Part shown: positions 6,801 through 62,034 of the stretch, in pieces | Numbering within the stretch: the stretch's first letter is position 1 | How the letters are laid out: the number at the start of each line of letters is the position of its first letter | From: Patescibacteria group bacterium | GTDB lineage: Bacteria; Patescibacteriota; Patescibacteriia; JBDRGY01 | Direction of reading: 5' to 3' | DNA length: 64,000 nucleotides | Assembly: GCA_043817315.1 (NCBI GenBank) | Contig: JBDRGY010000002.1 | Coordinates: forward strand, 1,046 to 65,045 | Notes under the pieces: generated by a model | What the model was told of the DNA's origin: nothing | Databases searched by the model: none | The model's input: only the letters and a program-made list of their open reading frames with translations | Program-made: the position numbers and the translations under genes

Positions 6801-8891
6801 GCCGGGGTCAGTGGCGTCGTATTTGAAAGTGAAGGCGGTCCAGGTTGCTACGGCTTTATTTCCGGCAACATCCTGAGTTTTAATCCTTAAATAGTAGGTG
6901 CCTGATGACGAAGGAGCAGCAGTATAATTGGCATCAGTAGAATAACTACCAGCAGTGGGATCACAACTAACTGCCCCAAAACACACCCAATAACCGTGGA
7001 CTCCAGATGGATTACCCTCTGGTCCGGCTGCATCAGCTGCTCCTGCCCATGTAAAATACGGTCCGGTGTGGTTGTACCAAGTGGCCGTAGTAATGGCATC
7101 GCCTCCGTTTTCGGAATAACCATTGATGGTGTCTGGATTGGTTGGCGGGGTAACATCAGAAGGGGTAAAAGCAATGGAATTATCTTCAAAGATTGGAGTG
7201 TTTCCTCCAGAGGGCGTTAAGGTCAACTGATACTGGACATACTGCTCTGTGTCAGTCACGCAGCTGTTGGCGCTCATATCTGAACCGCTTCCTATTGCCG
7301 TGCAAGTTGAAAAATCTGGAGCACCGAACATCACCGCGCTGTCAGAAGTGCGCACTTTGACTGCCACGGTACCTGAGCCCGAAGAATTATAAGCAAGATT
7401 GCCCCAGTCAGCTGAGAATTCAGTGTTAAAAATATTAGAGGTGAGTGTCCCTGTTGATTCATAATCTGATAGACTAAAATCATCGACGTAAACTGTTTTA
7501 CTAGCCTTCACCTGCACTCCATAAGTACGACTAGAAGCAGCCCCGGTTACAGTACCGGTTAGTTTGTACCAACCACCAGCATCGGCAGTGAAGGCTGTGG
7601 TCACAGTTGAGCCGTTGGCATAAAGCTCCACGTCAGCATCAGTTACTTCCGAGCCGTCAGTATAGGCGTAGGCTACTAAAGTATAAGAATTTGTATCTCC
7701 TACATTAACATTCTGTAAAAGTTCCACGGTATTTGTTCCAGAAACTACCTTGGCTGATCCTGCTCCATTTCTTTTGGTGTCGGTATCCAAAGTAAGGGTA
7801 CTGCCCAAGTTAAACTTGTTAGCCAAGAAGTTTTCCACCCCGTGGCGGTCTGCGGCTGAGATCACTTCGTCATAAATCATAAATTCAGCTATACGTCCGT
7901 TAAGATTCCAGGTACCATCGGCCCATTTGCCGATGGCTAGCCGCGGACTGGAAAAAGTGGCCTGGGAACCAATGGCGCTGACGGACTGCGATACACCATT
8001 AAACCAAAGAAAATGGCGGTTTCCAGTATTAGAAACTTGCTGGGAAAAAATCTGGAACCCCGAATCTATATTGGGACCATTGGCCACACCACCGTTGTAA
8101 TAGTTATAGTAGTCATCAGCGGTTCCTCCAGGAGCGTAGCGGGAGATAGACGATCCATTACTTGGACTGGCTGGATTGTAAATGAAGTATAGGTAATCGT
8201 AATTACTAGACGGCTGATTGGTGTAGTCAAACGAGGCCACTGAGATAACAGTGATATCAGTGATCGAAGCAATAGAAGTTAAGTCCACATAAAGCACTTC
8301 TCCGTTGCCAGCTGTATCAACGTCTGGCGAAAATTGGAGAACCGCTCGGCTATTCAACTCATCTGTTTCATAAGTCGGTCGGCGGCTGGCTGACGTTTGG
8401 GAAGCGTCGTTATTGCTGCTCGATTGGTCTCCCCAAACCTGGACGGTCTGTCCGTCTGTGGCCAGGGTTGAACCATTGTCATTATAGGCTTCAGCGTCTG
8501 CTCGCCCATAAAACTCTAAACCGCTGATAGTGGTCGGATCTATGCCCAGCCAGCTGTCTAGATCACTAGAATCATCAACGCCTGTATCAGAAAATTCCTC
8601 AGTGGCTGATACTGATACCTGCCCGGCCGTGGTAGTAGCATCAATATTTGATCCTGAAGCGTATTCGTCTACGGTCGAAGAGCCTACGCCACCACTCCAA
8701 TCAGTCTGCGTCCAGGGTGAATCGGCTGCTCGGGTAAACGGCCATTGGGTAACCAGTACAACTATAACCAATACTAAAAATACCGAGATTATCATTTGGA
8801 TTCGGTACTTAACCCGGTAAATTCTAAGCCTAGCTAAAGCCTCTTTTAGCTGCTTCCTTAAATCAGAGGTTTTACTCTGTCTGGATTTCAT
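3825..8891 (-). CDS. Giant surface protein, paralog 2 (1688 aa). It has a basic N-terminal tail, a single TM anchor, a LamG-like lectin domain, many FN3-like / purple-acid-phosphatase-N-like beta-sandwich modules, and a conserved C-terminal motif.
   Basis: Single 5-kb ORF with TM segment RIQMIISVFLVLVIVVLVTQW. LamG-like signature ...LNGRIAEFMIYDEVISAADRHGVENFLANKF. Internally duplicated ~100-aa modules (NTTNSFTFSWLEP...GYYYAINA...TQQGANVFYVVAVDTAGN and NTTNSFKFTWGEP...GYYYSINQ...TQQGTNTFYIVAIDDAGN). Repeated T.EW.T......VEYG.T..YG....H.V.L.GL...T.Y.FR units. Confidence 0.9.
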   Translation of the reverse strand: MKSRQSKTSDLRKQLKEALARLRIYRVKYRIQMIISVFLVLVIVVLVTQWPFTRAADSPWTQTDWSGGVGSSTVDEYASGSNIDATTTAGQVSVSATEEFSDTGVDDSSDLDSWLGIDPTTISGLEFYGRADAEAYNDNGSTLATDGQTVQVWGDQSSSNNDASQTSASRRPTYETDELNSRAVLQFSPDVDTAGNGEVLYVDLTSIASITDITVISVASFDYTNQPSSNYDYLYFIYNPASPSNGSSISRYAPGGTADDYYNYYNGGVANGPNIDSGFQIFSQQVSNTGNRHFLWFNGVSQSVSAIGSQATFSSPRLAIGKWADGTWNLNGRIAEFMIYDEVISAADRHGVENFLANKFNLGSTLTLDTDTKRNGAGSAKVVSGTNTVELLQNVNVGDTNSYTLVAYAYTDGSEVTDADVELYANGSTVTTAFTADAGGWYKLTGTVTGAASSRTYGVQVKASKTVYVDDFSLSDYESTGTLTSNIFNTEFSADWGNLAYNSSGSGTVAVKVRTSDSAVMFGAPDFSTCTAIGSGSDMSANSCVTDTEQYVQYQLTLTPSGGNTPIFEDNSIAFTPSDVTPPTNPDTINGYSENGGDAITTATWYNHTGPYFTWAGAADAAGPEGNPSGVHGYWVCFGAVSCDPTAGSYSTDANYTAAPSSSGTYYLRIKTQDVAGNKAVATWTAFTFKYDATDPGNPSGILPNPAGFSSEDSYSFTWNAGSDAHSGIGEYCYKTGAPAATDTCIAETTVSGITSYQEGTNVFYVRSKDVAGNLLDYYTSVNYYYSANAPSEPQNLQVDPASNTTNSFTFSWLEPASHDTTIAGYYYAINAIPNANNVTYTTQTTIGPDAFATQQGANVFYVVAVDTAGNKNWSSYSSIEFTASTSAPGIPTGIIVTDSSNREQGTFRLTVTWEEPDQVGGGIDHYKVERSDDGGDTYTEISQVTGTGYLDTGLTQNAWYCYQIKATDNAEAASAASSEVCEQARGRYYEAPSLVGNPGAETRIQSATIEWLTDRECSSFVEYGETTAYGSEAGQDDHLSSHSVNLIGLEPDTTYHYRVKFTDEDDNTGYSGDYTFETADAPSAPTSLAVAPTSNTTNSFKFTWGEPVDEGVTIEGYYYSINQEPSVTNSSYTAQTTLGPGPYATQQGTNTFYIVAIDDAGNINYDNHASIEFEANTAAPGAPTNMLIIDSSDRYTEKYMLTLTWDPPTTISSGEGEEVAYIIKRSTDNKTFEDISETQSIAYIDTSLSNETTYYYKVTAKDNAGAQSAASTVVSEIPEGRYRTPPTISAGPTVTPDSFTATITWETDREADSHAEYGLTEDLGEEQGTIEESDDHTVVLEGLNAETKYYYRIRSRDIDGNIALSSISSLTTLEAPRVSEVVVSDIKLYEATISWKTNKETTSLIDYGTTTDYGSVVYDTTGSSTLSHTLKLSGLSDGTTYHFRPTGLDATDNAPESGDYAFTTLTFPRVLSVSSENKAEGQTEVKWTTNVPTTSEVEYGNEDTPSKTQGNTALVTDHSVLVFGLEDATTYQFTVRGRDQFGYEAVSPEESFTTLEDTTPPIISDVRYEANTVGSGDTASVQIIVSWMTNEPTSSQLEYGEGLSSSTYTGSTDVNPELVIDHIMVIKDLEPARTYHFRVVATDKADNETLSDSYSVLTSRKRESFLQIVIDNLSDTFSWMSNMGNLF

Positions 8892-8894
8892 TTA

Positions 8895-11800
8895 TTAAAA
8901 CAAATTGCCGATGTTTCCTAACCAGGAGAAAGTCTGTTCTAGGTTGGAGATAACTATCTGCAAGAAAGATTCTCTGGCCCTGGAAGTTAACACTGAATAA
9001 TCGTCCGATTTAGTTTCGTTTCCAGCTTTATCTACAGCTATTGTTCTAAAATGGTAAGTTCGGGCCGGCTCCAGGTCGGGTATAATCATCAAGTGATCCT
9101 GCACCAGTTCCGGATTAATATCGGTCGAAGCTGAATATGAAGTTGACCCCAGCCCCTCCCCAAAATCAGCCGCGGTAGTGGTTGGCTCATCAGTTCTAAA
9201 GGAGACAATAATCTGAATTCTGGCTGCATCACCCGATCCCACTGTATTGGACTCATACTTGACGTGAGAAATGGTAGGCGGCGTAGTATCCTCTAAGGTT
9301 CTAAAGTTGTTTTCTACTGAAACGGCCTCGTAGCCGAATTGGTCGCGGCCCCGAACCACAAAATTGTAAATAGTTGCATCATTTAAGCCAAAAAGCAAGA
9401 CGGAGTGATCGGTTACCAGGGCAGTATTACCTTGAGTTTTGGACGGTTCATTTTCATTGTAGTATTCCACTTCCGAAGTAGTGGGCACATTGGTGGTCCA
9501 CCTAATCTCTGTTTGACCTTCGGCTTTGTTTTCCGAGGTAACATCAGACACTCGCGGAAAGGTTAGGGTAGTAAAGACATAATTATCCGAATTAAATTTA
9601 TTGCCGGAAGCATCTTCTGCATAAACTCTCAAATTATAGGTGGTTCCGTCTGCTAATCCTGTCAGTTTAATAGTGTGAGTAAAGCTAGTAGAGCCAGAGG
9701 TGTCAGTGTAGGTTAAACCATAATCCGTAGTAGTCCCATATTGAATCTGGGTAGTCGTTTCTTTATTAGTTTTCCAGGAAATTGTCGCTTCATACAACCT
9801 AATATCAGTAATCTCCATTTCCGATACCCGCGGCGCTTCTAGAGTAATAAATGAGGTTACGTCGGAATAGGCTTCATTTTCATCTCGGTCAATGGATTTT
9901 ACCTGGTAGTAATAAGTAGTTTCTGGATCTAAACCGGTAATCGTCACCGAATGATCATCAATTAAGTCAGAAGTTCCCTGTTCTCGATCATAATCTGTAG
10001 CCGAAGTTCCAAACAGGACAAAGGAGGAGGCCGGTCTTTCTGTTTTCCAGGTGACGGTGGCCGCAAAGGAATCAGGTACTATGGCCGGTCCAGCTGTAAT
10101 TTCCGGCGGAGTGGTATAACGACCGTCAGCTATTTCTTCAACTGGATCAGTGGCCGCTGAAGCGGATCCGGCTTTGTCAGCTGCTTTTACCTTGTAAAAA
10201 TATAATGTCTCAAATTCTAAATCAGTATCGATATAGGCAGTAGATTTGGTGGTGGCAATAACCTCATAGTCATTGTCCTCTTCAACCGCTCTATATATTG
10301 TATAGGTAATTTCTTCTTCCAGATCTTCTTCGACTGCATCTTTTACGATTCCAGAGGCACTGGGAGGATCAACCGAATTCCAACTGACCATTATTCGATA
10401 TTCTTTATCGGCCCGGTTGGAGACATCAAAGACTTCAGGATTAAGAGGAGCATCCGGCGGGATGGTATGAGCTTCAAAATCCACTACCGCATAATTGGCA
10501 TAATTTACATTACCGGCATCATCAGTGGCCACTACGTAGAAATTATTTATTCCCTGTTGAGTGGCTGCCGCAATCGGGCCTACTTCCGTATGAGTAGTAT
10601 AATAGACATTATCTTCGTTGGGCGGGGCATTAATACTGTAGTAATAACCTCCGACCGTAATTCCCTCGTCTACCGGCTCGGCCCAAGAGAAAGTGAAGCG
10701 ATTAACCATGTTTGATTCCGGATCAACTGCCAGATTGACCGGAGCGGAAGGGGCACCCAAGGTGGTTACTTCGTATATGGCTGATTCCCCGGTATTTCCA
10801 TCTTGGTCCACCCAGACTAATTTATAGTAATAAAGGGTGTCCGGTGATAGTCCAGTGACTAAAACCTCATGCTCGTCAACCAACTCTGAGGTGCCGGTTT
10901 CTTCTCCCAAACCTTCAGTCGTTCCGTATTGGACAAAAGAGGTAGCCGGATGAGGAATAACATTACCCAAACGATCTTGATCTGGCAAAGTCAGCCACTC
11001 GACCAAAACGGACCTGATGTAAGGAGTTACCGTCGGCTGACCGGACATAGTTGGGGCAAATTTAAATTTACCTTCCGGCTTAATACTTTCTACTGCCGAA
11101 TTACCGGAAGCGGCATTCCCACTGCCAACCGCTCTGATGAAATAACTATAGGTAATGGTGTTGTCCAAACTGGTATCTAAATAACCCAAAGTGGTAGTTG
11201 TAGCAATGTTGGTGTAATTATCTGGGGGATCAGCTACTGTGGATGGATTCTCACAATCTTCCTCACAACGATAAACTTTAAAGTTCTCGGCATTGGCCGT
11301 TTCATCCCAAGTCAGAGTGACTGAATATTTTTGAGTGGAACGATCAGAGGAGTCAGTCGCCTGCAAACTGGCTGGCGGATCTGGAGCAGTAGAAGTGAAG
11401 TCATAAGTTGTAGAGGTATAATTATCGTAATCAATGTTATTAATCACATCAGCTGCCACCAGATATAAAGTATTAGTCCCTTGTTGGGTAGCCGCTGAAA
11501 AACCAGGTAATAATCTGTTGTCAGTCTGATAGGCCGAGGTCCAACCACCGTCCGGACTGGGGGTAGTATTGCCGGCCGTATTGGTACCACAATTTTCGGC
11601 GCTAGGTAATTCATTGATTGTGAAACAATAACGTAAAATTTCATTAACATCACAAGGAGTCTGACCCAAACAGGTAGCCGGTAAGCTCCAGGAAAAGGAA
11701 AAAGTGTTATTGTTTGTGGCTGAAGTAGGCGTCGCCACTAAATTTTGCGGGGCTGTTGGCGGACTACCGGCATAGTAATAAGTAGTAGTGGCATAAGAAG

Positions 11801-14800
11801 AATAGTTGCCCGCCTCATCCAGGGCTCTAACATAGAAAATATTACCTCTGGTTCGATAAGCGGTAATTTCGGTTATGTGATTGTCATCAATGCAGGTATC
11901 AACAGCGCCGGGGGCCCCGGTTTTATAACAATAATACTCAACCCCGGAACCACCGCCATCAGTTGACACGTCCCAAGAAAAATCAAAGTCATTAGTTGAG
12001 GTGTAACCCGAGGGTGTGGCCGATACGTCAGATGGGTTAGAGGGATCAATAATATCTAATTTATAGGTAAAAGTATTAGTCGGATTAGTAGTGATATTAC
12101 CGTTATTATCGACAGTTTTTATTATCAAATAATAAGTATCGGAGGTGAGGGCAGAGGCCGCCTGGGTAGCTGCATTCCAGGAACCGTCATTGCCGGAGGC
12201 TGAATATAAATTAGTGCCGGAAACATAAGCCAGGTTAGTGGGATCGCTGGCATCATCAACCGGATCTTTGCCGCTGTCATTCCCAAAATAGACATAAAAT
12301 CCTGACAATCCAATTCCGCCGGCATTATCTGCGCCGGTCCATTCAAAGTAAGGTGTAGCGTCATTAACCCAAGTATCAGTCGCAATCTCTGTTCCCCCAT
12401 CTTCGGTATAGCCGGTTGCTGAAGTCGGGTTGGTTGGGGCCGTTCCGTCAGTATAATAACTCCAAGTTAGATCATCGACCGTCGGTGAATAAAGTTGGTC
12501 AGTCACAAAATAAATTCTAACTTGTCCATACTGAGCCACGGTAGAATCAATGCTGTAATAATTAGTGCTACTAATTTCCCGATTATTGGAAACCGCTGTC
12601 CAGTCCCCCCAATTGACGTCATCTTCATCATCAGCGCAGCCGGCATTAGAACAAGTTCTAGTTTCTATACTAATAGAAGTATTAGCCGGTTCGGTTACAT
12701 TGACCGTTAGTCCTCCGTAGCCATAAACCCCAGCCTCAAAATCCAGAATTTCTGAAGTCCAATAACCGTTACCCTCAAAACCGGTGCTGGAAGTGGCCAC
12801 CACGTAACGTTCCATTGAAGTGGTATATTCTCCGCGGAAACCCAAGACCACATTATTGCCGGTCATTACCAGGTCACCGTATTCGAAGAAAGAAGTTGTG
12901 TCTCGTGTACTCCAACTATCTTCCGAGATGTCATAAACGTACATTTCATTGCCATTGGGCTCATCACCGCGCGGGATTAAAATATTTCCCTGACCGTCCG
13001 GCACGCAGGCATCGCCGTAGCGCATATTACCCGGAGCCAATGACAGAGTACCGGCCACGTCCCAAGTTTGTGAACCGATATTAAATCGATAGATATCGTC
13101 TTGATTGTTACCACGCACCATATAAATATAACCATCTCCGCCGTTAGCAGCACAACCACCAGTATAAACAGTTCCGGGGATAGCCGAGGCAACTGTCTCC
13201 CAGATATCTGTATCAATTGTGTACTTATAAAATTCTGTGGTGTTGGCGCCTCGGGCCGTATAGATAGTATTGGTTCCATCAAACACCAAATCCGATCCGT
13301 AATTAGTTTCGTTAGCCGCCGTATTGGTGTTATCCAATCTAGTCCACTTATCATCATTTATATCGTAGCGCCAAAAGGTTCCTTCATTTTCCGTTAAGCC
13401 GCTTTCTCCCGGTAATAGATAGACTCCATCATATTGGTCACTGCTATGATTTATATATTGGGCTGACGCTCCCGGTCTAACCCGCATAGGTGCATTGGCT
13501 CTGCGCTTCCAAACATCATTGGCGATATCATAAGACCACCACTCATTGGAATTACCGCCCCTGGCCACATACAGCATATCGTTATCATTATCATAAGCCA
13601 CGGCTCCGTAGTAAAAACCATAGTTGGTATATGTATGAGGCAAGGTCGGAGTTTTCCAGCGATTTTCAGAAACGTCATAGGCCAGCAGGGCATAATCAAC
13701 CTGATAGCCCCGAATGGTGTACATGGTGTCATTAGAAGGAACGTAAACCAGGTTGCCAGCCCCTCCCTGGTATTGAGTAGTCGGCAAATCATCCAACCAT
13801 TCCCAGTTTTCATTGGCAATGTCATAACGCAGAAAACCGTTAGCTGCATAACCCCGCACTAGGTAAAAATAACCATCCAAATAATAGGCGGAGGCACCAT
13901 AATGGGTCCAGATGGGCACGCTTTTTTCATAAGACCAGGTGTTGGCCGAGACCCTATAGGAATAAAAATCGGTATCGCCATAACCTCTGGTGGCATACAG
14001 ACAGCCACCTTCGTCACTGCAATAATCACCATTGGGCACATATACTAAAGTACCGCCATAATAAACCAATTGGTCAAAACCGGTCAGCTGAGTCCAATCA
14101 TCAGCCGTTTCTCCTTCTCCGACATCGGTAATAATGTTGTATTTCCAGAACTCATTGGTGGCATCTCCCCTGGTGGCATAAATAGCATTGGCGCCATCAT
14201 AGGCCAGTTGACTACCATAATAGATTTGGGACCCTTCGAAATCACTCAGGTCTGTCCAGGTGCCGGCATTAACGTTGTAGCGGCGGAAAGTGGCGGTGTT
14301 GTTACCGCCGGTGGCAAAAACACAACCTGCCGAATCGGCACAATAGGTACCGGTTGGCACATAGACCATACTGGCGCCACCGTAAACCCCCGATCCGTAA
14401 TTGGCCAGTTGAGAATAAGTTTTATCGGCTACCGAGTAAGCGTAAAATTCCTGGCGGTTGTAACCGCGGAACATAAAAATGGTGTCATCGCCGTCATAGG
14501 ACAATCCCGATCCGTAGTAACCGCCGACATTATTGGCCACCCAGGGAATGGGTGCTTCGTTGGTCCAGATGCCGTTGCTGACTGAATCCAAAGTCAGGCT
14601 GGTCCCGGATTCAGCCGCCGTATTGATATTGGTCTCCAAAGTTCCGGTCGCTTGGAAATCGGCCTGGACCGTCCAGGTATTGGTACCGGCCGGAGAAATA
14701 CCGTTATAGGTATAAGTAAAGATAGTCTCTACATCATCCGTATTGCCGGCATCATCCTTGGCCGCCACCCGCAAATAATAAGTACTGCTGTTGGTCAGAT

Positions 14801-17800
14801 CGGTATTGACTTCGTAAGTGGTTCCGGTTTGAAAATAATCTTCGGAACTGGTCGGATCGTGAGAGGCGTTGGTAGTCCAGGACAAGTAATACCCGGCCAA
14901 GCCTGATTCGGCGTCCACAGCCCCGGTTAGTTCGAAGTAAGGATTAATATAATAGTAGGAATTGCCGGTGGTTAAAGCAGTTCCCTTGGTTGAATCAGCG
15001 TAACCGACCACAGTCGGGTTAGTCGGATTGACTGAATCCTTTTCGTAGTTAATCGTAAATTCAGAAACAGTTGGAGTATTATCGTCATCCGAATTTAAAA
15101 CCACTTTGACCTGAATATAACGATTAGCCGAAGAACCAATGGTGGTGCCGGAAACTTGAGTCCAGTCCTCCCAGGAAACTTGGTCATCAGAAGTCCTGGT
15201 GTAGTAGTCAATTGTACTACCCCCCGGCTCTAAATCAGTGGCCGTAAAACTGTTAAACGAGGTAGCGTAAGTCAGATCGTAAGTCGGAGAAATCCAACTG
15301 GCTGTGGGAATGTAATCATCAGAATCGGTAGTAAATTTATAAATGGAATTGGTATCAAACCCTCGGCGAATGTACATGGTATCAGTGGCATCATCATGAG
15401 CCATGCCAATGCCACGGACAAAATTATCAGGAGTATCACTGGCCCGGCTCCAACTATCTCCCGAGATGCTGTAGCGCCACATAGAGGTGCCGAAATTGCC
15501 GGTAATGGCGTAGATACTGTCATCTCCGTCATAGGCCAACACTGCGTTGTAATAGGAACCTTCCGGTAAGTCGGCCAATTCGGTGAAGTCATCGCCAACC
15601 GGATCGTATTCGTAAAATTGAGCCCGATAATAACCGGCTAGCATATACACTTTGTTGCCATCGTTGGTTATTCCTGCACCATAATAAGCGGTCACCGGTA
15701 GATCTTCTGTAGTCCAACTGCCATCATAATGATAAATATCGTCAGTATTGTTGCCTGCCTGAATATAGACGTCACCATCACCAAAACAGGTGATTCCCCC
15801 TCCTTCTTCCACCGCTCCCGGCATACTGCCAATACTGGACCAGCCTCCGGCATCATTGCTGATGTCATAACTGTAAAAATTAGTTGTGTTAATACCCCTG
15901 GTCAAATACAGTTCTCCATTGCCGTCATAACACAGCGAGCCGCCCCGGCTGATATTGGCTAAGCCGGTCGAGGTCATGGTGTTCCAGGCTCCATCGGCAA
16001 TATCATAACGATAGAAAATGGTGGTATTTCTACCCTGGGCCATAAACAAACACCCGGTGGCATCAGAACAACCGTCTTCACTGTTGGGCACAAAGGTGAT
16101 CAGATCGCTGTCGTAATCATTGCTGGCAATAGCCGGGGTGGCAATAGAGTCCCAAGCCCCGGCAGTAATGTCATAACGCAAGAATTCCGGCCGGTTGATT
16201 CCGGGCAGAGCATATATATAGCCGTCAAAGTAGAGGAGAGTACCGCCTTCATCAACCGTTAACCCCCCCGGCATATCCGGCGGATTATCAAGATCTTCCT
16301 GCCATTCCTGGTCAGCAATATCGTACATCATAAACTCGTCATTGTTGTAACCGGTCATGGCGTAGATATTTCCGTTGACAGCGTCAACCGCCATGGAACT
16401 GCCGTAGCTAATCCGGCCGCTGTTGCCCAGGGTGGTCGGTACATTGGCAAAATTGTAAGACCATTGAGCCAGGCTGATATCATAACGGAAAAACTCGCGA
16501 TTGTTGCTGCCCCGAAAAGCGTAGATACAACCGGTCTCACAATAAACCGGACTAGTGCCATAAGAAACCGCTGAATAGACCAAGGGGTGGCCGTTGCCGG
16601 TATAAATCTGATAAGGATAGGGAATTGAAGAAATGGTGTCGTTCCAAGTATCAGTGGCAATGTTGTATGACCAAAACCCGTCCCGGCTGTTACCTTGCGT
16701 GGCGTACAGTTTACCGTTATTGCCACTGACCAGATCCGAACCCAAACCCCAGATGTCCGGCGCATCGCTTAATTGGGTCCAAATATTATTGGCAATATCA
16801 TAGCGAAACAGAAAGGGCACGCCGTTGGTGTCGTCCGAACCGTCCTGCCCGTTGATGGCATAAATATAACCGTCATAATAAGCTAGCGAGCCTCCGTAAT
16901 AGAAACCGGTTGGCGCATCAATCAGTAATTTCCAGATATTTAACTCCGGATTATAACGAAAGAAGCCCGGTTGGTTGCCACCCACGATCATGTAGATGTA
17001 AGTACCATCAGTGGTTAAATCTGCTCCATAATTGGCGCCTTCGTAAGTATAGATGCCATAGCCACGCTGATTGGTGGGATAACCCGGAGTATCTGCACTC
17101 CAAGAACCAACTCCGCCACTGGCAATTTGCAGATCACCAGAGGTTGTGGTCATGTCTAGTTGGTTAGGATAATATTGCCCGGCTTGCCACTCGGTTTGGG
17201 AAGAGACTGTGTAGGTAGCTGCCGTAGCGTGTACCAACAGTTGCTGAATTGATCCGGCCACTAGGGTGCCAATAATCAAAATTACAAAAATCGAAATAGG
17301 AGAAAAGTGCCACCACTTCTTTTTTCTAAGAACAATTAAAGGTTTTATTTTACTTTTTTCTTTTTTACGACGTTGCTGGGCCGATTTGCTAATTGCCTTT
17401 TGCCAACTGGCATGTTTTTGGGAAATTCTACCCGGGATAGCTATTATTGTTTTTATAAATCCAGTAGTTAATCCAATAACCCGCCGCCATCTGGCCTGAT
17501 TTACCTTTTTGGTAGTTTGAATGTCTTTTTTAAGATATCTCTTGGCTTTCAACTGACGGGCTCTAACGACACTTTTAACTTGCTCTCGTTTTTTAACCGG
17601 TTTAACAAAAATACTGGCTGTCTTCTCAAAGCCAGAACGCATAAGCTGGGGAATTTCTAATTTATCTTTTAGATTGAAAGAGTATTTAAAACCCTTGGGA
17701 CGACTAAAAACTTTACCGGAGTAACTGTTTCCTCCAGTTTTTTTGGACGTTTTCCCCAGAAATCTACGTGTCCCCATAGATTTCAACTTGTTTTTTTGGT

Positions 17801-17813
17801 TTGTATTTTTCAC
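8895..17813 (-). CDS. Giant surface protein, paralog 1 (2972 aa). It has a ~165-aa Lys/Arg-rich cytoplasmic N-terminus, a single TM, about 24 Kelch-like propeller blades in two blocks, FN3-like modules, and the same C-terminal region as paralog 2.
   Basis: Single 8.9-kb ORF with TM WHFSPISIFVILIIGTLVAGSIQQLL. I counted ~24 recurrences of the blade motif (F/W/M)(F/Y/W)(R/S/K)Y(D/N)I....W (FFRYNPELNIWKLL, LFRYDIANNIWTQL, FWRYDINDDKWTRL and others). The C-terminal ~700 aa align with paralog 2. The stop lies 3 nt before the paralog 2 start, so the two look like an operon. Confidence 0.9.
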   Translation of the reverse strand: MKNTNQKNKLKSMGTRRFLGKTSKKTGGNSYSGKVFSRPKGFKYSFNLKDKLEIPQLMRSGFEKTASIFVKPVKKREQVKSVVRARQLKAKRYLKKDIQTTKKVNQARWRRVIGLTTGFIKTIIAIPGRISQKHASWQKAISKSAQQRRKKEKSKIKPLIVLRKKKWWHFSPISIFVILIIGTLVAGSIQQLLVHATAATYTVSSQTEWQAGQYYPNQLDMTTTSGDLQIASGGVGSWSADTPGYPTNQRGYGIYTYEGANYGADLTTDGTYIYMIVGGNQPGFFRYNPELNIWKLLIDAPTGFYYGGSLAYYDGYIYAINGQDGSDDTNGVPFLFRYDIANNIWTQLSDAPDIWGLGSDLVSGNNGKLYATQGNSRDGFWSYNIATDTWNDTISSIPYPYQIYTGNGHPLVYSAVSYGTSPVYCETGCIYAFRGSNNREFFRYDISLAQWSYNFANVPTTLGNSGRISYGSSMAVDAVNGNIYAMTGYNNDEFMMYDIADQEWQEDLDNPPDMPGGLTVDEGGTLLYFDGYIYALPGINRPEFLRYDITAGAWDSIATPAIASNDYDSDLITFVPNSEDGCSDATGCLFMAQGRNTTIFYRYDIADGAWNTMTSTGLANISRGGSLCYDGNGELYLTRGINTTNFYSYDISNDAGGWSSIGSMPGAVEEGGGITCFGDGDVYIQAGNNTDDIYHYDGSWTTEDLPVTAYYGAGITNDGNKVYMLAGYYRAQFYEYDPVGDDFTELADLPEGSYYNAVLAYDGDDSIYAITGNFGTSMWRYSISGDSWSRASDTPDNFVRGIGMAHDDATDTMYIRRGFDTNSIYKFTTDSDDYIPTASWISPTYDLTYATSFNSFTATDLEPGGSTIDYYTRTSDDQVSWEDWTQVSGTTIGSSANRYIQVKVVLNSDDDNTPTVSEFTINYEKDSVNPTNPTVVGYADSTKGTALTTGNSYYYINPYFELTGAVDAESGLAGYYLSWTTNASHDPTSSEDYFQTGTTYEVNTDLTNSSTYYLRVAAKDDAGNTDDVETIFTYTYNGISPAGTNTWTVQADFQATGTLETNINTAAESGTSLTLDSVSNGIWTNEAPIPWVANNVGGYYGSGLSYDGDDTIFMFRGYNRQEFYAYSVADKTYSQLANYGSGVYGGASMVYVPTGTYCADSAGCVFATGGNNTATFRRYNVNAGTWTDLSDFEGSQIYYGSQLAYDGANAIYATRGDATNEFWKYNIITDVGEGETADDWTQLTGFDQLVYYGGTLVYVPNGDYCSDEGGCLYATRGYGDTDFYSYRVSANTWSYEKSVPIWTHYGASAYYLDGYFYLVRGYAANGFLRYDIANENWEWLDDLPTTQYQGGAGNLVYVPSNDTMYTIRGYQVDYALLAYDVSENRWKTPTLPHTYTNYGFYYGAVAYDNDNDMLYVARGGNSNEWWSYDIANDVWKRRANAPMRVRPGASAQYINHSSDQYDGVYLLPGESGLTENEGTFWRYDINDDKWTRLDNTNTAANETNYGSDLVFDGTNTIYTARGANTTEFYKYTIDTDIWETVASAIPGTVYTGGCAANGGDGYIYMVRGNNQDDIYRFNIGSQTWDVAGTLSLAPGNMRYGDACVPDGQGNILIPRGDEPNGNEMYVYDISEDSWSTRDTTSFFEYGDLVMTGNNVVLGFRGEYTTSMERYVVATSSTGFEGNGYWTSEILDFEAGVYGYGGLTVNVTEPANTSISIETRTCSNAGCADDEDDVNWGDWTAVSNNREISSTNYYSIDSTVAQYGQVRIYFVTDQLYSPTVDDLTWSYYTDGTAPTNPTSATGYTEDGGTEIATDTWVNDATPYFEWTGADNAGGIGLSGFYVYFGNDSGKDPVDDASDPTNLAYVSGTNLYSASGNDGSWNAATQAASALTSDTYYLIIKTVDNNGNITTNPTNTFTYKLDIIDPSNPSDVSATPSGYTSTNDFDFSWDVSTDGGGSGVEYYCYKTGAPGAVDTCIDDNHITEITAYRTRGNIFYVRALDEAGNYSSYATTTYYYAGSPPTAPQNLVATPTSATNNNTFSFSWSLPATCLGQTPCDVNEILRYCFTINELPSAENCGTNTAGNTTPSPDGGWTSAYQTDNRLLPGFSAATQQGTNTLYLVAADVINNIDYDNYTSTTYDFTSTAPDPPASLQATDSSDRSTQKYSVTLTWDETANAENFKVYRCEEDCENPSTVADPPDNYTNIATTTTLGYLDTSLDNTITYSYFIRAVGSGNAASGNSAVESIKPEGKFKFAPTMSGQPTVTPYIRSVLVEWLTLPDQDRLGNVIPHPATSFVQYGTTEGLGEETGTSELVDEHEVLVTGLSPDTLYYYKLVWVDQDGNTGESAIYEVTTLGAPSAPVNLAVDPESNMVNRFTFSWAEPVDEGITVGGYYYSINAPPNEDNVYYTTHTEVGPIAAATQQGINNFYVVATDDAGNVNYANYAVVDFEAHTIPPDAPLNPEVFDVSNRADKEYRIMVSWNSVDPPSASGIVKDAVEEDLEEEITYTIYRAVEEDNDYEVIATTKSTAYIDTDLEFETLYFYKVKAADKAGSASAATDPVEEIADGRYTTPPEITAGPAIVPDSFAATVTWKTERPASSFVLFGTSATDYDREQGTSDLIDDHSVTITGLDPETTYYYQVKSIDRDENEAYSDVTSFITLEAPRVSEMEITDIRLYEATISWKTNKETTTQIQYGTTTDYGLTYTDTSGSTSFTHTIKLTGLADGTTYNLRVYAEDASGNKFNSDNYVFTTLTFPRVSDVTSENKAEGQTEIRWTTNVPTTSEVEYYNENEPSKTQGNTALVTDHSVLLFGLNDATIYNFVVRGRDQFGYEAVSVENNFRTLEDTTPPTISHVKYESNTVGSGDAARIQIIVSFRTDEPTTTAADFGEGLGSTSYSASTDINPELVQDHLMIIPDLEPARTYHFRTIAVDKAGNETKSDDYSVLTSRARESFLQIVISNLEQTFSWLGNIGNLF

Positions 17814-19509: not shown

Positions 19510-19586
19510 GCGCCCGTAGCTCAATTGGATAGAGCGCTTGGCTTCGGACCAAGAGGTTGGGGGTTCGACTCCCTCCGGGCGTACCA
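19510..19586 (+). tRNA. tRNA-Arg(TCG), CCA encoded
   Basis: Hand-folded cloverleaf: GCGCCCG/CGGGCGT acceptor (G1-U72), D arm GCTC..GAGC, anticodon stem CTTGG/CCAAG with loop CTTCGGA, T arm GGGGG TTCGACT CCCTC, then ACCA. Confidence 0.9.
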
Positions 19587-19599
19587 GCCAGAAAATTAG

Positions 19600-19675
19600 G
19601 CGCCCATAGCTCAATTGGTAGAGCGCCTGCCTCTTAAGCAGGGTGTTGCAGGTTCGAGTCCTGCTGGGCGTACCA
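19600..19675 (+). tRNA. tRNA-Lys(CTT), CCA encoded
   Basis: Acceptor GCGCCCA/TGGGCGT, anticodon stem CCTGC/GCAGG with loop CTCTTAA, T arm GCAGG TTCGAGT CCTGC, then ACCA. Confidence 0.9.
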
Positions 19676-30297: not shown

Positions 30298-30317
30298 GAT
30301 GTTCCACGTGGAACATC
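30298..30317. promoter_or_regulatory. Perfect 20-bp palindrome GATGTTCCACGTGGAACATC upstream of tRNA-Arg(CCT)
   Basis: Read directly. It has a CACGTG core. A related palindrome GTTTCACGTGAAAC lies at 37225-37238. Confidence 0.4.
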
Positions 30318-30349
30318 ATCTGTATTTTTAGCTAAGGTTAGGCAAATTT

Positions 30350-30421
30350 GCCCTTGTAGCTCAATGGATAGAGCAGATCCGTCCTAAGGATAAGATGGGG
30401 GTTCGATTCCCTCCAAGGGCA
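30350..30421 (+). tRNA. tRNA-Arg(CCT), no encoded CCA
   Basis: Acceptor GCCCTTG/CAAGGGC, D arm GCTC AATGGATA GAGC, anticodon loop GTCCTAA, T arm GGGGG TTCGATT CCCTC. Confidence 0.8.
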
Positions 30422-30501
30422 TATTACAGCGAATTCTTAAGGTCTTGAGCCGTATGAAAGGCCGAAATCCCGCCGATTGGCGGGGCCTCTCGGGAGACCA
30501 T

Positions 30502-30539
30502 GGGCCGTTAGCTCAGTTGGCTAGAGCGTCACTTTCGCA
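30502..30539 (+). other. 5' fragment of a tRNA-Ala(CGC)-like gene (positions 1-37: acceptor 5' strand, D arm, anticodon stem 5' strand and CGC loop) with no matching T arm downstream
   Basis: GGGCCGT TA GCTC AGTTGGCTA GAGC G TCACT TTCGCA. It is followed at once by the GC-rich bracket motif CCCGCCTATCGGAGTGCGG. Confidence 0.6.
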
Positions 30540-30556
30540 CCCGCCTATCGGAGTGC

Positions 30557-30628
30557 GGGCCAGTAGCTCAGTGGTAGAGCACTGCATTCGCATTGCAGGG
30601 GTCAGGGGTTCGACTCCCCTCTGGTCCA
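30557..30628 (+). tRNA. tRNA-Ala(CGC), no encoded CCA
   Basis: GGGCCAG/CTGGTCC acceptor with G3-U70, anticodon stem CTGCA/TGCAG with loop TTCGCAT, T arm AGGGG TTCGACT CCCCT. Confidence 0.9.
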
Positions 30629-30802
30629 TTTCCGCACGGCGGGCAGGTGGCGAAAGTCGCCCCGCTTTTTGGCGGAGCACGGCACCAAATCAAAAAAATG
30701 CCTAAAATCAGCCAAATTTTGGCTTGATTGTTTTTACAAAATGTGTTAGAATTAAGTTGTCCTTAATTTAGAAAAAATCCAAATTGAAAGGGGGTGAACT
30801 AA

Positions 30803-31492
30803 ATGGATACTTTTACATCATGGGGAGACGCCCTAAATAACTCATTAGATAATATCTGGACAGGTTTCCTTGATTTTCTGCCCAAATTCGTAGGGGCAGT
30901 TTTAATCTTCGTAATTGGCTGGATCGTTTCAGTTCTGATCGGAAATTTGGTATCAAGAGTAGTCAAATACCTTTGGGTAGATCGCCTATTACAAAGAATT
31001 AAGGTTAAGGAGGCAGTAGAAAAAGCCGGTATAAAGGTTGATATTGCCAAAAGTATGGGGTTGATAGTTAAGTGGTTTTTGATCTTTGTTTTTCTAACTG
31101 CCGCTACTGATGTTGTGGGTTGGACTGAAGTTACTCTGTTTTTGCGTAAATTCGTCGGTTATCTGCCAAATGTGATTATTGCCGTCATCATCTTCACCTT
31201 GGGCTTAATGTTTGCTAATTGGGTCCAAAGTGTGGTCAAAAAGTCAATTTCCGCCTATAAATTGCTCTCTCCTGAATTAGTATCAGCCATAGCTAAGTGG
31301 TCCATCGTTGTTTTCAGTCTGCTGGCCGCCTTAATCCAGTTAAGGGTCGCTCCTTCACTATTACAAACCTTATTCACAGGTATTGTTGCCATGATCGCTA
31401 TTGCCGGAGGCCTGGCTTTTGGCTTGGGTGGCAAGGAATATGCCCGGAACCTTTTAGAAAAAGTCCAAAAAGACGTCCATCCTAAAGAATAA
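30803..31492 (+). CDS. Multi-pass membrane protein with repeated conserved TM-helix units (MscS-N-terminal-like)
   Basis: 229 aa. Repeats of the ...LPKFVGAVLIFVIGWIVS... / ...LPNVIIAVIIFTLGLMFANWV... type. RBS GGGGGTG lies upstream. Confidence 0.45.
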   Translation: MDTFTSWGDALNNSLDNIWTGFLDFLPKFVGAVLIFVIGWIVSVLIGNLVSRVVKYLWVDRLLQRIKVKEAVEKAGIKVDIAKSMGLIVKWFLIFVFLTAATDVVGWTEVTLFLRKFVGYLPNVIIAVIIFTLGLMFANWVQSVVKKSISAYKLLSPELVSAIAKWSIVVFSLLAALIQLRVAPSLLQTLFTGIVAMIAIAGGLAFGLGGKEYARNLLEKVQKDVHPKE

Positions 31493-31560: not shown

Positions 31561-31690
31561 GGGCCGGTCCCTAGGTCCCGCACTGCGGGACCGGGATCCC
31601 GATCACCAAAAGTGACTTAGGGATAGTTCAGTTTCCGCCAAAGGCGGACCAGCCTCTGGCTGGGGCTATCATCTCTTTGCGATAAAAAGT
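31561..31690 (+). other. Structured GC-rich segment that contains a split copy of the first 17 nt of the downstream tRNA-Ala(GGC)
   Basis: GGGCCGG plus a 56-nt stem-closed insert (TCCCTA...TAGGGA, with inner hairpins GGTCCCGC ACT GCGGGACC and TCAC CAAAA GTGA) plus TAGTTCAGTT. Further hairpins follow: CCGCC AAA GGCGG and CCAGCC TCT GGCTGG. Confidence 0.4.
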
Positions 31691-31707: not shown

Positions 31708-31891
31708 GGGCCGGTAGTTCAGTTAGCTAGAATGCCTCCATGGCATGCCTGCCCGCCAGGACCCATGGGCCGTTGGCTCAGTTGGTAGAGCGTCTCCATG
31801 GCATGGAGAAGGTCACCGGTTCGAATCCGGTCCGGTCCATAGGCTCTGGCAGGCGGGGAGGAGGTCAGGGGTTCGAGTCCCCTCCGGTCTA
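31708..31891 (+). tRNA. Interrupted outer tRNA-Ala(GGC). 5' part 31708-31746, 3' part about 31857-31891, with a ~110-nt intervening sequence at the 3' side of the anticodon loop.
   Basis: The two parts have complementary acceptor strands (GGGCCGG/CCGGTCT, with G1-U72 and G3-U70) and anticodon-stem strands (CCTCC/GGAGG), plus a canonical T arm AGGGG TTCGAGT CCCCT. Joined in silico they give a 74-nt cloverleaf. The D loop AGTTAGCTA lacks the usual GG. Confidence 0.5.
31767..31839 (+). tRNA. tRNA-Ala(GGC), complete, located inside the interruption of the outer tRNA-Ala(GGC)
   Basis: GGGCCGT TG GCTC AGTTGGTA GAGC G TCTCC ATGGCAT GGAGA AGGTC ACCGG TTCGAAT CCGGT CCGGTCC A. G3-U70 is present. There is one 7-66 mismatch. 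Confidence 0.85.
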
Positions 31892-54486: not shown

Positions 54487-54744
54487 ATGAAATATTACGT
54501 CTATATTTTAAAATGTGACGAGGAAAATTTATATACGGGATCGACTTGTGATTTGAAAAATCGGATTGAAAAGCATAAAAAAGGAGAAGGTGCTATATTT
54601 ACCAGAAACAGAAAATCGATTAAACTTGTATATAAAGAACTTTATAAAATAAGGGAGTTGGCTGAAAAAAGAGAAAAGCAGATAAAAGGGTGGTGCAGAA
54701 AAAAGAAGATAAATTTAATCAAATTTGGCCATCCTCTAGGGTAA
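54487..54744 (+). CDS. Small GIY-YIG nuclease-family protein (85 aa)
   Basis: MKYYVYILKCDEENLYTGSTCDLKNRIEKHKKG (GIY-YIG motifs YVYIL / LYTGST, R, E). The longer track ORF overlaps tRNA-Cys and is rejected. Confidence 0.85.
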   Translation: MKYYVYILKCDEENLYTGSTCDLKNRIEKHKKGEGAIFTRNRKSIKLVYKELYKIRELAEKREKQIKGWCRKKKINLIKFGHPLG

Positions 54745-55516: not shown

Positions 55517-55829
55517 AGGTTAACCAATTTAAAATCCCCTTTATTTTGGGGAGTAATTTACATAATAACACGGCTATTTTGCCCTGTCAAGGGATAAAAA
55601 AGGCCTGGAAATCCGCTTCTTCTTTGGTCGTTTTTAAGACTTGTTCTTGATTCCTTTTCCCACCAACCAGATAACTACTATTAAGACAATTGCTGCTGTT
55701 ACCCAAGCCCACCAGTAGTCGATAATTATTTCTTCCATCTTTTTTTGTCGATTACTTTTTTATTTATTAGAGCGAGTGACCCCGCTGTTGGCGGGGCGTC
55801 TTCGGCTCGCTTGTATAACCTGTTCAGTA

Positions 55830-55901
55830 AGCGGGTGAGCGGAATCGAACCGCCGTCTTCAGGTTGGAAACCTGACATAATAGCCACTATACTACACCCG
55901 C
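55830..55901 (-). tRNA. tRNA-Gly(TCC), no encoded CCA
   Basis: Minus strand: GCGGGTG TA GTAT AGTGGCT ATTAT G TCAGG TTTCCAA CCTGA AGAC GGCGG TTCGATT CCGCT CACCCGC T. Confidence 0.9.
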
Positions 55902-55955
55902 CCGCCCAATTCCTGGAACCTACATCTTTCTAGATAAGTTACAAGAATTGGGCGG
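55902..55955 (-). repeat. Perfect 12-bp inverted repeat (CCCGCCCAATTC / GAATTGGGCGGG, 30-nt loop) between the GIY-YIG stop and tRNA-Gly(TCC); its last base is tRNA position +1
   Basis: Read directly on the minus strand: CGCGCCCGCCCAATTC ttgtaacttatctagaaagatgtaggttccag GAATTGGGCGGG CGGGTGTAG. Confidence 0.7.
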
Positions 55956-55962
55956 GCGCGCC

Positions 55963-56220
55963 TTAACGAGACGCTAGATAATTTTTTAAGTTTTTCTTAA
56001 TAAATCTTCTCCCCCAGCCACTTTTATAGTATCTTTCTCTCTGGAGGGCATCTTGCTTGCTCAGGAAAGCTTCGCAATAAATTAACTTCAGTGGTAAGTG
56101 GGGCTGGGTTGAATAAGTTGACCCTTTATTGTGTTCTTTGACTCTCTTCTTTAGATTCTTGGTGAATCCTATATATAACCTGCCATTTTTCTCACTTTGT
56201 AGAATGTACACGTAATACAT
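55963..56220 (-). CDS. Small GIY-YIG nuclease-family protein (85 aa)
   Basis: MYYVYILQSEKNGRLYIGFTKNLKKRVKEHNKG...E. Confidence 0.85.
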   Translation of the reverse strand: MYYVYILQSEKNGRLYIGFTKNLKKRVKEHNKGSTYSTQPHLPLKLIYCEAFLSKQDALQRERYYKSGWGRRFIKKNLKNYLASR

Positions 56221-56247
56221 CTGGGTTTAACGAATAATTAAACCCCG

Positions 56248-61993: not shown

Positions 61994-62034
61994 TGGTGGG
62001 CACGGATGGATTCGAACCATCGACCTCGTCATTA
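61994..62034 (-). other. 3' fragment of tRNA-Ile(GAT), positions 36-76 including CCA
   Basis: Minus strand: T AA TGACG AGGTC GATGG TTCGAAT CCATC CGTGCCC A CCA, directly after the bracket motif ...CCGTACGGCGGGCAGG. Confidence 0.65.

Follow-up and report, generated by a model that had tools for sequence, protein, structure and literature searches.

An intron of archaeal tRNA-Trp holds a box C/D RNA, and the Rickettsia palindromic elements and the GC clusters of yeast mitochondria are GC-rich palindromes in AT-rich genomes. The anticodon and T loops of tRNA genes are classical targets of integrases (Williams 2002). T4 SegB is a free-standing GIY-YIG homing endonuclease in a tRNA gene cluster (PMC2330249), and "fractured genes" are host genes split by an endonuclease gene (PMC2677866). 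Here, we describe a locus in which one tRNA-Ala(CGC) gene lies between the separated halves of another. It occupies positions 30445-30690 of a 64,000-nucleotide stretch (hereafter the window) from a Patescibacteria group bacterium (GenBank assembly GCA_043817315.1, contig JBDRGY010000002.1, positions 1,046 to 65,045). With a probability of around 0.8, this locus is a gene-replacement scar and belongs, as an aged copy, to a large family of mobile elements by which tRNA genes are carried and replaced.

An earlier interpretation of the window from its letters alone (the sequence-only reading) had picked out seven features here: a GC-rich hairpin, a 38-nt tRNA 5' fragment, a 5' arm (30540-58), a complete tRNA-Ala(CGC), a 3' arm, a short complement of the fragment, and two small hairpins. 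All seven are present where it placed them, and the complete tRNA is called by both ARAGORN and Rfam. With the help of relatives of the locus (numbered L001 and so on), its parts are identified as follows:

30502-30539, plus strand: 5' half (positions 1-37) of the resident, or outer, tRNA-Ala(CGC), now a pseudogene piece made of acceptor strand, D arm, anticodon-stem strand and the loop TTCGCA.
30540-30549, plus strand: left terminal repeat of the insertion, CCCGCCTATC (family consensus CCCGCCTGCC).
30550-30556, plus strand: subterminal arm GGAGTGC, of which GTGC, together with the first GG of the inner tRNA, pairs with CCGCAC at 30632-30637.
30557-30628, plus strand: the inner, complete and presumably functional tRNA-Ala(CGC), hereafter the cargo (ARAGORN; Rfam RF00005, 70.1 bits against a threshold of 29, E = 3e-13).
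30629-30647, plus strand: right arm, composed of TTT, subterminal CCGCAC and the terminal repeat GGCGGGCAGG (30638-30647), as in the tRNA-Ile insert of the window and in L004.
30648-30687, plus strand: decayed 3' half of the outer tRNA-Ala(CGC), with T38, the 3' strand GGCGA of the anticodon stem, the variable region AAGTC, a ruined T arm, the acceptor strand ACGGCAC and CA (from the alignment with L003 and the fold).

The insertion of 108 bp (30540-30647) splits the resident gene exactly between positions 37 and 38, and the two halves abut. Only 36 nt of it lie outside the cargo, and it contains no open reading frame (ORF). The cargo bears G3:U70 and A73, the mark of alanine identity, and has no encoded CCA. 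The 3' arm, previously delimited as 30632-30643, continues for 4 nt more, through GGCGGGCAGG, to 30647. The sequence-only reading held that no T arm or 3' acceptor strand for the fragment exists downstream, which proved incorrect: the letters of 30648-30687 (T GGCGA AAGTC ...ACGGCACCA) are those of a decayed 3' half. In the minimum-energy fold, the acceptor strand of the fragment, GGGCCGU, pairs with ACGGC.ACC in this relic, and the region as a whole folds better than its shuffled versions (z = -2.8). As a tRNA, however, the outer gene is no longer recognizable: ARAGORN finds none in the joined halves (30502-39 + 30648-87), the anticodon-stem strands TCACT and GGCGA do not pair, and the T arm is replaced by GCCCCGCTTTTTGGCGGAGC. 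The intron mode of ARAGORN does not report the outer tRNAs either. The small hairpins lie at about 30648-61 and 30662-75. The pairing that had been noticed between the trailer and the anticodon of the fragment is real, in that GCGAAAGT (30650-57) is the exact complement of ACTTTCGC (30531-38), yet it is mostly a matter of ancestry, since GCGA once formed the 3' strand of the anticodon stem and, in the loop of tRNA-Ala(CGC), T-CGC-A repeats the stem sequence TCGCA.

The history of the locus can be followed in its relatives. The MscS-like protein encoded next door (30803-31492) is 100% identical to a protein from a Patescibacteria metagenome-assembled genome, and homologues with 77-80% identity are found on three contigs that share the gene order of the window, namely IF-2, DAG-kinase-like, bactofilin, tRNA-Arg(CCT), tRNA-Ala(CGC), MscS-like, and tRNA-Ala(GGC). 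L003, in which the neighbouring protein is 78% identical, provides an empty site with a plain, uninterrupted tRNA-Ala(CGC). Its 5' half is identical to 30502-39 at 35 of 38 positions, two of the three changes being in the anticodon stem (TCGCA to TCACT), and its 3' half, T-TGCGA-AGGTC-T arm-ACGGTCC-ACCA, aligns with 30648-87, which reads T-GGCGA-AAGTC-ruined T arm-ACGG--C-ACCA. This alignment to the joined halves is the informative one; a global MAFFT alignment is misleading in that it pairs the L003 tRNA with the inner gene.

Other relatives show later stages. The inner tRNA of L001 is identical to the cargo of the window at 72 of 72 positions, while there is no longer a 5' fragment and the 3' arm reads TCGTACAGTGGGCAG, a diverged form; since the cargo has remained unchanged although its arms diverged, the arms are dispensable for expression of the tRNA. 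L002 is at a similarly late stage, with diverged remnants of the 3' arm only and without a 5' arm. In L004 (protein 51% identical) and L130, an insert with ends of this kind again interrupts tRNA-Ala(CGC) after TTCGCA, the site in L004 being 37/38; the left terminal repeat of L004 reads CCCGCCCCCC, and the insert of L130 is bounded by the consensus 10-mer. A right arm of the form CCGYRC-GGCGGGCAGG is common to the target locus, the tRNA-Ile insert of the window (62050-62035) and L004, and L001 and L002 have diverged copies of it. Finally, among 80 unselected Patescibacteria loci around the MscS-like gene, the same nesting was found in L004, L006 and L075. Alignment across relatives, which the sequence-only reading had proposed, reveals a fragment and arms that decay and, in L003, a gene that is still uninterrupted.

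These GC-rich arms are the terminal inverted repeats of a mobile-element family with the consensus 5' CCCGCCTGCC...GGCGGGCAGG 3'. The family is defined by the ends CCYGCCYGCC...GGCRGGCRGG, a complete tRNA in the same orientation as its surroundings, a location in the loop of a tRNA with the same anticodon, and the absence of a duplication; at the target, 8 of 10 positions agree on the left and 10 of 10 on the right, and Ala(CGC) lies inside Ala(CGC) in the same orientation. A scan of metagenomes for the majority arrangement, with a pattern that asked for a T loop within the element and for ends close to perfect, returned at least 120 loci, and at least 114 unique elements enclose a co-oriented tRNA. 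For the 114 listed, the 10-mer is exact at 93 left ends and 97 right ends. The repeat often extends to 16 nt, as CCTGCCCGCC-AT-nGCC / GGC-GAT-GGCAGGCGGG.

Further figures come from the matches listed. The modal length of the element is 109 bp, and some 30 cargo anticodons occur, for Arg, Thr, Val, Ile, Leu, Pro, Gln, Gly, Cys, Asn, Ala and Trp. For 48 of 109 elements, exact excision brings back an outer tRNA that spans the junction, and the anticodon of this outer tRNA is that of the cargo in 38 of the 48 scorable cases; most of the exceptions checked by eye are due either to an extra small hairpin in the outer anticodon loop (for example, L114 and L188) or to a misplaced boundary (L129, L165). 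Since exact excision works even inside anticodon loops, the insertion makes no target-site duplication. The junctions lie in the D loop or the 3' strand of the D stem (18), in the anticodon loop (14) and at T-loop position 56/57 (6). Outer and cargo genes are typically 65-87% identical, which implies that the cargo is usually foreign to the gene that it replaces.

No sequence is shared by the flanks of the insertions at the 100 or more insertion sites. The elements also enter one another: in L093, L128, L159 and L172, there are two to five layers, one copy sitting in the cargo tRNA of another at the same site. In L093 (2371-2976), five identical 70-nt units, each made of the 5' end of the element and the 5' part of the cargo, precede a core tRNA-Arg(CCT) and two 3' units, a structure to be explained either by recursive nesting carried to an extreme or, in part, by an artefact of assembly. 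Copies of 29-77 nt without cargo (for example, the 36-nt CCTGCCCGCAATGCTACGCATAGCGTTGCAGGCGGG) lie between genes and in loops of the outer halves, already dead, of cargo-carrying insertions, especially at T-loop position 56/57; no stand-alone tRNA that was otherwise intact was found to contain one. Tiny GC hairpins (TCCGCC-NNN-GGCGGA and similar) recur in the D loops of outer relics or replace their T arms, and examples in the window are 30469-84, 31634-63 and 55780-96. In the target, the tRNA-Ile insert, L004 and L130, the two 10-mers are swapped with respect to the majority arrangement, that is, the ends are inverted relative to the cargo.

The sequence-only reading had likened the target to two tRNA-in-tRNA arrangements, at 31708 and 60031. 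The comparison was apt, for the same kind of bounded insertion splits tRNA-Ala(GGC) and tRNA-Phe there, as well as a tRNA-Ile that it had not listed:

31708-31891, plus strand: tRNA-Ala(GGC) nest, with outer 5' half 31708-31747, element 31748-31857, cargo 31767-31839 and outer 3' half 31858-31891.
60031-60284, minus strand: tRNA-Phe nest, with outer 5' part 60284-60263, element 60262-60084, cargo 60200-60126 and outer 3' part 60083-60031.
61994-62379, minus strand: tRNA-Ile(GAT) nest, with the outer gene in four pieces, inserts without cargo at 62357-62322 and 62315-62241, and an insert at 62232-62035 that holds the cargo tRNA-Ile, 62151-62075.

The Ala(GGC) insert, with tRNA-Ala(GGC) as its cargo, has the ends 5' CCTGCCCGCC...GGCAGGCGGG 3', in which the two 10-mers have changed places relative to the target, and those of the Phe insert, CCTGTCCGCA...GGCGGGCGGG, are variants of this arrangement. 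The target and the tRNA-Ile insert follow 5' CCCGCCTGCC-GGAGTRCGG ... CCGYAC-GGCGGGCAGG 3'; in the latter, the 10-mer at 62232-62223 is the consensus itself, and the subterminal arms of the target have GGAGTACGG / CCGTAC as their counterparts. Between the two, the inner helix shows a compensatory change from G:C to A:T (GTGCGG/CCGCAC in the target, GTACGG/CCGTAC in tRNA-Ile). In-silico excision of the Ala(GGC), Phe and Ile inserts restores outer tRNAs that ARAGORN recognizes and that have the anticodon of the cargo; the four outer exons of tRNA-Ile still join into a perfect tRNA-Ile. The outer tRNA-Ala(GGC) has an uninterrupted orthologue in L001 and L002, and in L003, the same inner gene and arms accompany a far more decayed outer gene.

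Some of these nests have features of their own. One of the cargo-free inserts in the D arm of tRNA-Ile (62357-62322 / 62315-62241) includes a 29-nt AT-rich piece flanked by repeated AGCGC. At 31620-31668 lies the 5' piece of an older tRNA-Ala(GGC), GGGATAGTTCAGTT...GGCTA, with two 15-nt GC hairpins in its D loop; the piece, which has its homologue in L003, precedes the present outer gene by 40 nt, so that the locus has at least three layers. At 55765-55960 (minus strand), tRNA-Gly(TCC) has a 64-nt palindrome with GC ends (55897-55960) before it and an older Gly(TCC) 3' relic after it, the T arm of the relic being replaced by the hairpin CCCCGCCAACAGCGGGG; this gene is probably another, older replacement.

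What becomes of the outer gene can be judged from the T-loop motif GTTCRANYC. It is present in 293 of 309 tRNAs called by ARAGORN (95%), in 53 of 108 outer 3' parts (49%) and in 1.7% of random 75-nt windows, and this loss is seen although the scan favoured near-perfect, presumably young, ends. Together with the shared anticodon and the lack of cargo-free copies in stand-alone tRNAs, it argues that insertion inactivates the resident and that the cargo sustains the cell. Going by these comparisons of sequence, the most likely outcome of insertion is the death of the resident gene and its replacement by the cargo, and splicing of the outer halves is unlikely.

At the target, an ordinary tRNA-Ala(CGC) would have followed tRNA-Arg(CCT) immediately in the ancestor. 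A non-autonomous mobile DNA element of 108 bp would then have entered the anticodon loop between positions 37 and 38, without a target-site duplication, and inactivated the resident gene, the cargo tRNA taking over the decoding of GCG codons. In the outer halves, drift would subsequently have altered the anticodon stem by mutation, destroyed the T arm and deleted 2 nt from the acceptor strand. The rule that the cargo matches the target would be explained if only those insertions survive that bring a working copy, most tRNA genes being presumably single-copy in such small genomes.

How the element moves is a separate question. Its ends are conserved as sequence around variable interiors, occur in both arrangements and are found in intergenic copies, which points to a DNA element recognized via its ends; both arrangements are what is expected of a DNA element inserting in either orientation. 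Movement as DNA could be transposition of the hairpin-forming element or break-induced copying into the loops of tRNA genes. In the model that we prefer, breaks or single-strand insertion would take place at the exposed loops of heavily transcribed tRNA genes, the element would be copied or transposed into the break, and it would survive only where its cargo matches the gene destroyed. The two 10-mers form a conserved imperfect inverted repeat in which T and C are exchanged at positions 3 and 7, so that either single strand folds with one T.G and one C.A mismatch; a fold of this kind recalls, by analogy, substrates that are recognized as folded single strands. The subterminal arms pair slightly better with their own than with a swapped partner (-4.8 versus -4.0 kcal/mol, p = 0.025). 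Covariation within these arms was considered and set aside, the AT-nGCC / GGC-GAT segment being largely conserved as sequence. Targeting of hairpin loops in general was also rejected: flanking stems of at least 5 bp occur at 21% of sites as against 2.7% of controls, and these are mostly the arms of tRNAs. Many intergenic cargo-free copies show no flanking stem. The search for an autonomous copy gave only nested or adjacent small elements among pairs of ends up to 6 kb apart.

A candidate for the enzyme exists in the window in the form of two GIY-YIG proteins of around 85 aa (PF01541), each encoded directly before a tRNA gene:

54487-54744, plus strand: GIY-YIG ORF, upstream of tRNA-Gly(GCC).
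55966-56226, minus strand: GIY-YIG ORF, upstream of tRNA-Gly(TCC).

Over 1.22 Mb, an iterative search found 15 such ORFs (around 85 aa), of which 11 have a tRNA no more than 100 nt away. At least seven of them, with the adjacent tRNA, are flanked by halves of a cognate outer tRNA or by one-sided relics (L159, Lys-CTT; L196, Val-TAC; L091, Trp-CCA; L107, L188 and L206, Ala-TGC; L097, Ala-GGC), and in L159 and L107, the stop codon of the ORF is formed by U8-A9-G10 of the tRNA. The solved structures nearest to these ORFs are UPF0213 proteins and the structure-specific nuclease SLX1. By their layout, the inserts that combine a GIY-YIG ORF and a tRNA look like autonomous "nuclease plus rescue tRNA" cassettes; they may be linked to the repeat-bounded family, and a small SLX1/UPF0213-like GIY-YIG nuclease may supply the breaks. 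One could go further and imagine in Patescibacteria a class of selfish elements whose homing targets are essential tRNA genes and which bring a working copy, with autonomous GIY-YIG-tRNA and miniature forms and with the cargo tRNA, or its gene, guiding the nuclease. In its boldest version, guidance would occur via, for example, an R-loop or an extruded cloverleaf, and a nuclease consisting of a catalytic domain only would be programmable by a tRNA. We regard this extended scheme as tentative and, on balance, rather doubtful. A GIY-YIG homing cassette at the target itself was rejected, the 108-bp insert being without an endonuclease ORF. L206 (560-1460) also contains a second insertion family, with the ends TCCCGATTT...AAATCGGGA, in relics of tRNA-Ala(TGC); one of its copies holds a GIY-YIG ORF, the others are 58-98 nt long, and CCCCGTTATTCAACGGGG hairpins lie in T loops.

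The alternative that comes closest to the observations treats the insert as a new, protein-dependent bacterial tRNA intron, in which the terminal GC helix marks the splice sites. A double-strand-specific endonuclease and an RtcB-type ligase might, for example, join the exons, RNase P and RNase Z would free the second tRNA, and the target would be an intron-bearing gene that has decayed through redundancy. Indeed, the ends of the insert pair and so bring the two exons together, the insertion is exact, and its removal restores a perfect tRNA; moreover, the positions in the D, anticodon and T loops, and an outer tRNA-Ile with several inserts, recall archaeal tRNAs with multiple introns, and Patescibacteria are rich in introns according to a 2026 survey (PMC13011429). 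The best argument is the outer tRNA-Ile of the window, which has three inserts and yet perfect exons. Splicing is nevertheless unlikely to account for the family, because around half of the outer 3' parts lack the near-universal T-loop motif despite near-perfect element ends, and because a functional outer gene would not require the cargo to share its anticodon. Neither would an intron be expected to shun otherwise intact stand-alone tRNAs when it is free of cargo, nor to have ends that are conserved as sequence rather than as structure alone and that are also swapped and intergenic; the decay of the arms of L001 around an unchanged cargo speaks in the same sense. Inspection reveals no bulge-helix-bulge geometry: an intron of this type, with its two 3-nt bulges on either side of a 4-bp helix, was rejected since the junctions have a terminal helix of 6-10 bp with asymmetric loops and the 16S rRNA is bacterial. 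A group I intron was rejected too, the insert being too short for a ribozyme core (P3-P9), which usually takes 200 nt or more, and no Rfam intron model matching at the gathering threshold in the window or at E <= 10 in 30300-30760.

The sequence-only reading had itself offered a second possibility, a leader-trailer for processing or regulation that would imitate one half of a tRNA and be selected for the expression of tRNA-Ala(CGC). A fold better than that of shuffled sequences, in which leader and trailer are paired around the tRNA, is what such a structure would give. However, the supposed mimic is orthologous to a real gene, the plain tRNA of L003, and has suffered mutations in its anticodon stem and lost its T arm; relatives carry the same or a similar tRNA without the 5' fragment (L001), without the 5' arm (L002) or without arms (L003); and the same ends flank about 30 unrelated tRNAs and intergenic copies devoid of cargo. 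A fragment and arms conserved across relatives with compensatory changes would be expected of a leader-trailer, and the opposite is observed, so that we find this possibility very improbable. Little more than a slight chance is also left to a third explanation, which dispenses with a dedicated element and invokes either a tRNA-Ala duplicated locally in tandem and then reduced by deletions, or an island with a tyrosine integrase that once occupied the anticodon loop and left its footprint there. It would suit the known taste of integrases for anticodon and T loops, and other mechanisms of duplication do exist in these genomes, as indicated by an exact duplicate of a tRNA-Leu 3' part without GC ends in L014. 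This duplicate, at 2478-2769 (minus strand), repeats 61 nt of tRNA-Leu(CAG) 147 nt downstream and is of a different, att-like kind. At the target, by contrast, the outer halves abut without overlapping, hence there are no att-like direct repeats, and the divergence of 15-35% between inner and outer genes means that they are not recent duplicates; the same ends of 10-16 nt bound at least 100 inserts of around 109 bp. No integrase gene is found nearby, the neighbours being IF-2, DAG-kinase-like, bactofilin and MscS-like genes, and for these reasons an integrase island was dropped. A phage origin was likewise discarded: on viral contigs, the two end arrangements gave 0 and 4 chance matches, all four in one GC-rich phage sequence without tRNAs. 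IS200/IS605 elements and repetitive extragenic palindromes (REP) moved by REP-associated tyrosine transposases (RAYT) were rejected as well, for the ends pair with each other and do not form separate hairpins, and the 100 or more sites have no target consensus, where such elements have a fixed target of 4-5 nt beside the left end; a Y1 transposase was not found among the 28 ORFs of the window that were scanned.

Several points nonetheless weigh against reading the locus as the scar of a mobile, gene-replacing element. The distribution of filled and empty sites in four close relatives does not fit a single insertion event simply. Three outer tRNAs of the window are intact or nearly so, and one of them, tRNA-Ile, is intact despite three insertions. 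Across the 1.27 Mb examined, no pair of family ends up to 6 kb apart was found to enclose a transposase or nuclease gene, and the inserts made of a GIY-YIG ORF and a tRNA do not have the CCTGCCCGCC ends. Classical miniature inverted-repeat transposable elements (MITEs) make target duplications, and this family does not. Finally, the metagenome sample is biased by the search pattern towards young, cargo-bearing copies, and its loci would belong to Patescibacteria to judge from habitat and from the loci in named genomes.

The immediate surroundings of the target may preserve an older layer of the same process:

30349-30422, plus strand: tRNA-Arg(CCT) (ARAGORN and Rfam, 63 bits).
30469-30484, plus strand: GC hairpin CCCGCC-GATT-GGCGGG, a collapsed or miniature element end beside the outer tRNA-Arg relic (unique in the window; counterpart in L003).
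30485-30501, plus strand: putative decayed 3' end of an outer tRNA-Arg(CCT), GCCTCTCGGGAGACCA and T (from its position and L003 2777-2800, GATTCCCTCCAAGGGCACCA).
30710-30733, plus strand: terminator-like hairpin AGCCAAATTTTGGCT followed by a T run (from a consensus scan only), which probably ends the tRNA transcription unit.

The tRNA-Arg(CCT) is most likely itself the cargo of an older insertion of this kind, given the outer tRNA-Arg 3' relic downstream of it in the window and L003 and the nesting of the same tRNA in L001 and L006. CCCGCC and GGCGGG no more than 30 nt apart occur once in the window against 0.03 expected, and comparable GC hairpins of 15-17 nt recur within outer relics. Where the window has this hairpin, L003 shows GGCGGATCCGCCCCTGGCGGG|GATTCCCTCCAAGGGCACCA; from the match of the hairpin and GCCTCTCGGGAGACCA to ...GGCGGG|GATTCCCTCCAAGGGCACCA, they appear to be the end of the earlier tRNA-Arg(CCT) insertion and the 3' relic of that gene. 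Of all the parts annotated here, the assignment of 30485-30501 to such a relic is the least secure. A perfect palindrome, GATGTTCCACGTGGAACATC, stands shortly before tRNA-Arg(CCT), at 30298-30317; its core TGTTCCACGTGGAACA is kept at the same place in L001, L002, L003 and L006 and also occurs close to a tRNA in L097, and the palindrome may serve as an operator or a promoter element.

Elsewhere in the window, the adjacent tRNA-Arg(TCG) and tRNA-Lys(CTT) at 19510-19675 (plus strand) have near-identical acceptor and D arms (GCGCCCGTAGCTCAATTGG and GCGCCCATAGCTCAATTGG), which suggests a recent duplication with a change of anticodon or gene conversion. On the minus strand, 62449-64000 contains the 3' end of 16S rRNA (63452) and a PlsY-like ORF (62449-63096), then the tRNA-Ile nest; the rRNA genes appear to be unlinked, with no 23S rRNA within the window. 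Two giant back-to-back ORFs of 1688 and 2972 aa occupy 3825-17813 (minus strand).

At least 4 of the 12 tRNA genes of the 64-kb window are nested, as are around a tenth of those in unselected loci of relatives. If our interpretation is correct, a sizeable share of the tRNA genes in some ultra-small bacteria would be second-, third- or later-generation replacements, and a selfish element would have a new way to occupy an essential gene, which is to bring a spare instead of splicing or rebuilding one end. This would constitute a route for the horizontal exchange and turnover of tRNA genes and would account for tRNA fragments and for "missing" or odd tRNA calls in metagenome-assembled genomes; it would also be a warning for annotation, since tRNA finders report the inner gene only. 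A family of small structure-specific GIY-YIG nucleases would gain a testable role, and the conserved, mismatched hairpin ends may define a new substrate for transposition or recombination. No description of tRNA-in-tRNA nesting or of these repeats was found in the open-access full-text literature, and a term search of the 2026 survey of Patescibacteria tRNA introns (PMC13011429) gave no mention of the arrangement; the family is apparently undescribed.

How, then, does this family compare with known systems? With MITEs and with REP and REPIN sequences, it shares terminal inverted repeats that fold into hairpins, a small size (about 30-200 bp), the absence of an ORF, many copies and the existence of intergenic copies without cargo. 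It differs from them in that no partner transposase or RAYT gene was found (in 1.27 Mb and in 28 ORFs of the window) and in that it prefers the loops of tRNA genes, carries a matching functional tRNA and nests in its own cargo. Integrative elements and prophages also hit the anticodon or T loop and also avoid lethality by bringing tRNA sequence with them. They are, however, kilobases long, encode an integrase and bring the 3' part only, thereby making a chimeric gene and a direct repeat, whereas here a whole tRNA is brought within around 109 bp and the resident is left as two dead halves that do not overlap.

Group I introns, including those at the 35/36 site in Patescibacteria (PMC13011429), resemble the family in their presence in the anticodon loop, in the same phylum, and in their exact insertion without duplication. 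The family has no ribozyme core and also hits D and T loops, and its outer halves decay, which implies a neutrality conferred by the replacement gene, unlike the splicing of group I introns. Archaeal introns and split tRNAs offer the D, anticodon and T positions, several inserts per tRNA, GC-rich helices and an RNA inside the insert; the present host is bacterial, and its inserts have no bulge-helix-bulge, have ends conserved in sequence and do not maintain the outer halves.

SegB and the fractured genes are the nearest precedents on the GIY-YIG side, since they too associate GIY-YIG nucleases with tRNAs, or have a selfish cassette that splits a gene, the function of which is kept by other means. 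Here, the proteins are around 85 aa long with a catalytic domain only and are SLX1/UPF0213-like, the target locus has no endonuclease gene, and rescue comes from a duplicate tRNA and not from split inteins or co-conversion. The Rickettsia palindromes and the yeast GC clusters are also small GC-rich palindromes that spread into the genes of AT-rich, reduced genomes; these, however, carry no gene and are tolerated in host products, while the tRNA-carrying family inactivates its target and replaces it. The family therefore resembles MITEs and REPINs in its form, integrative elements in its logic and introns in its position, and it fails a defining test of each.

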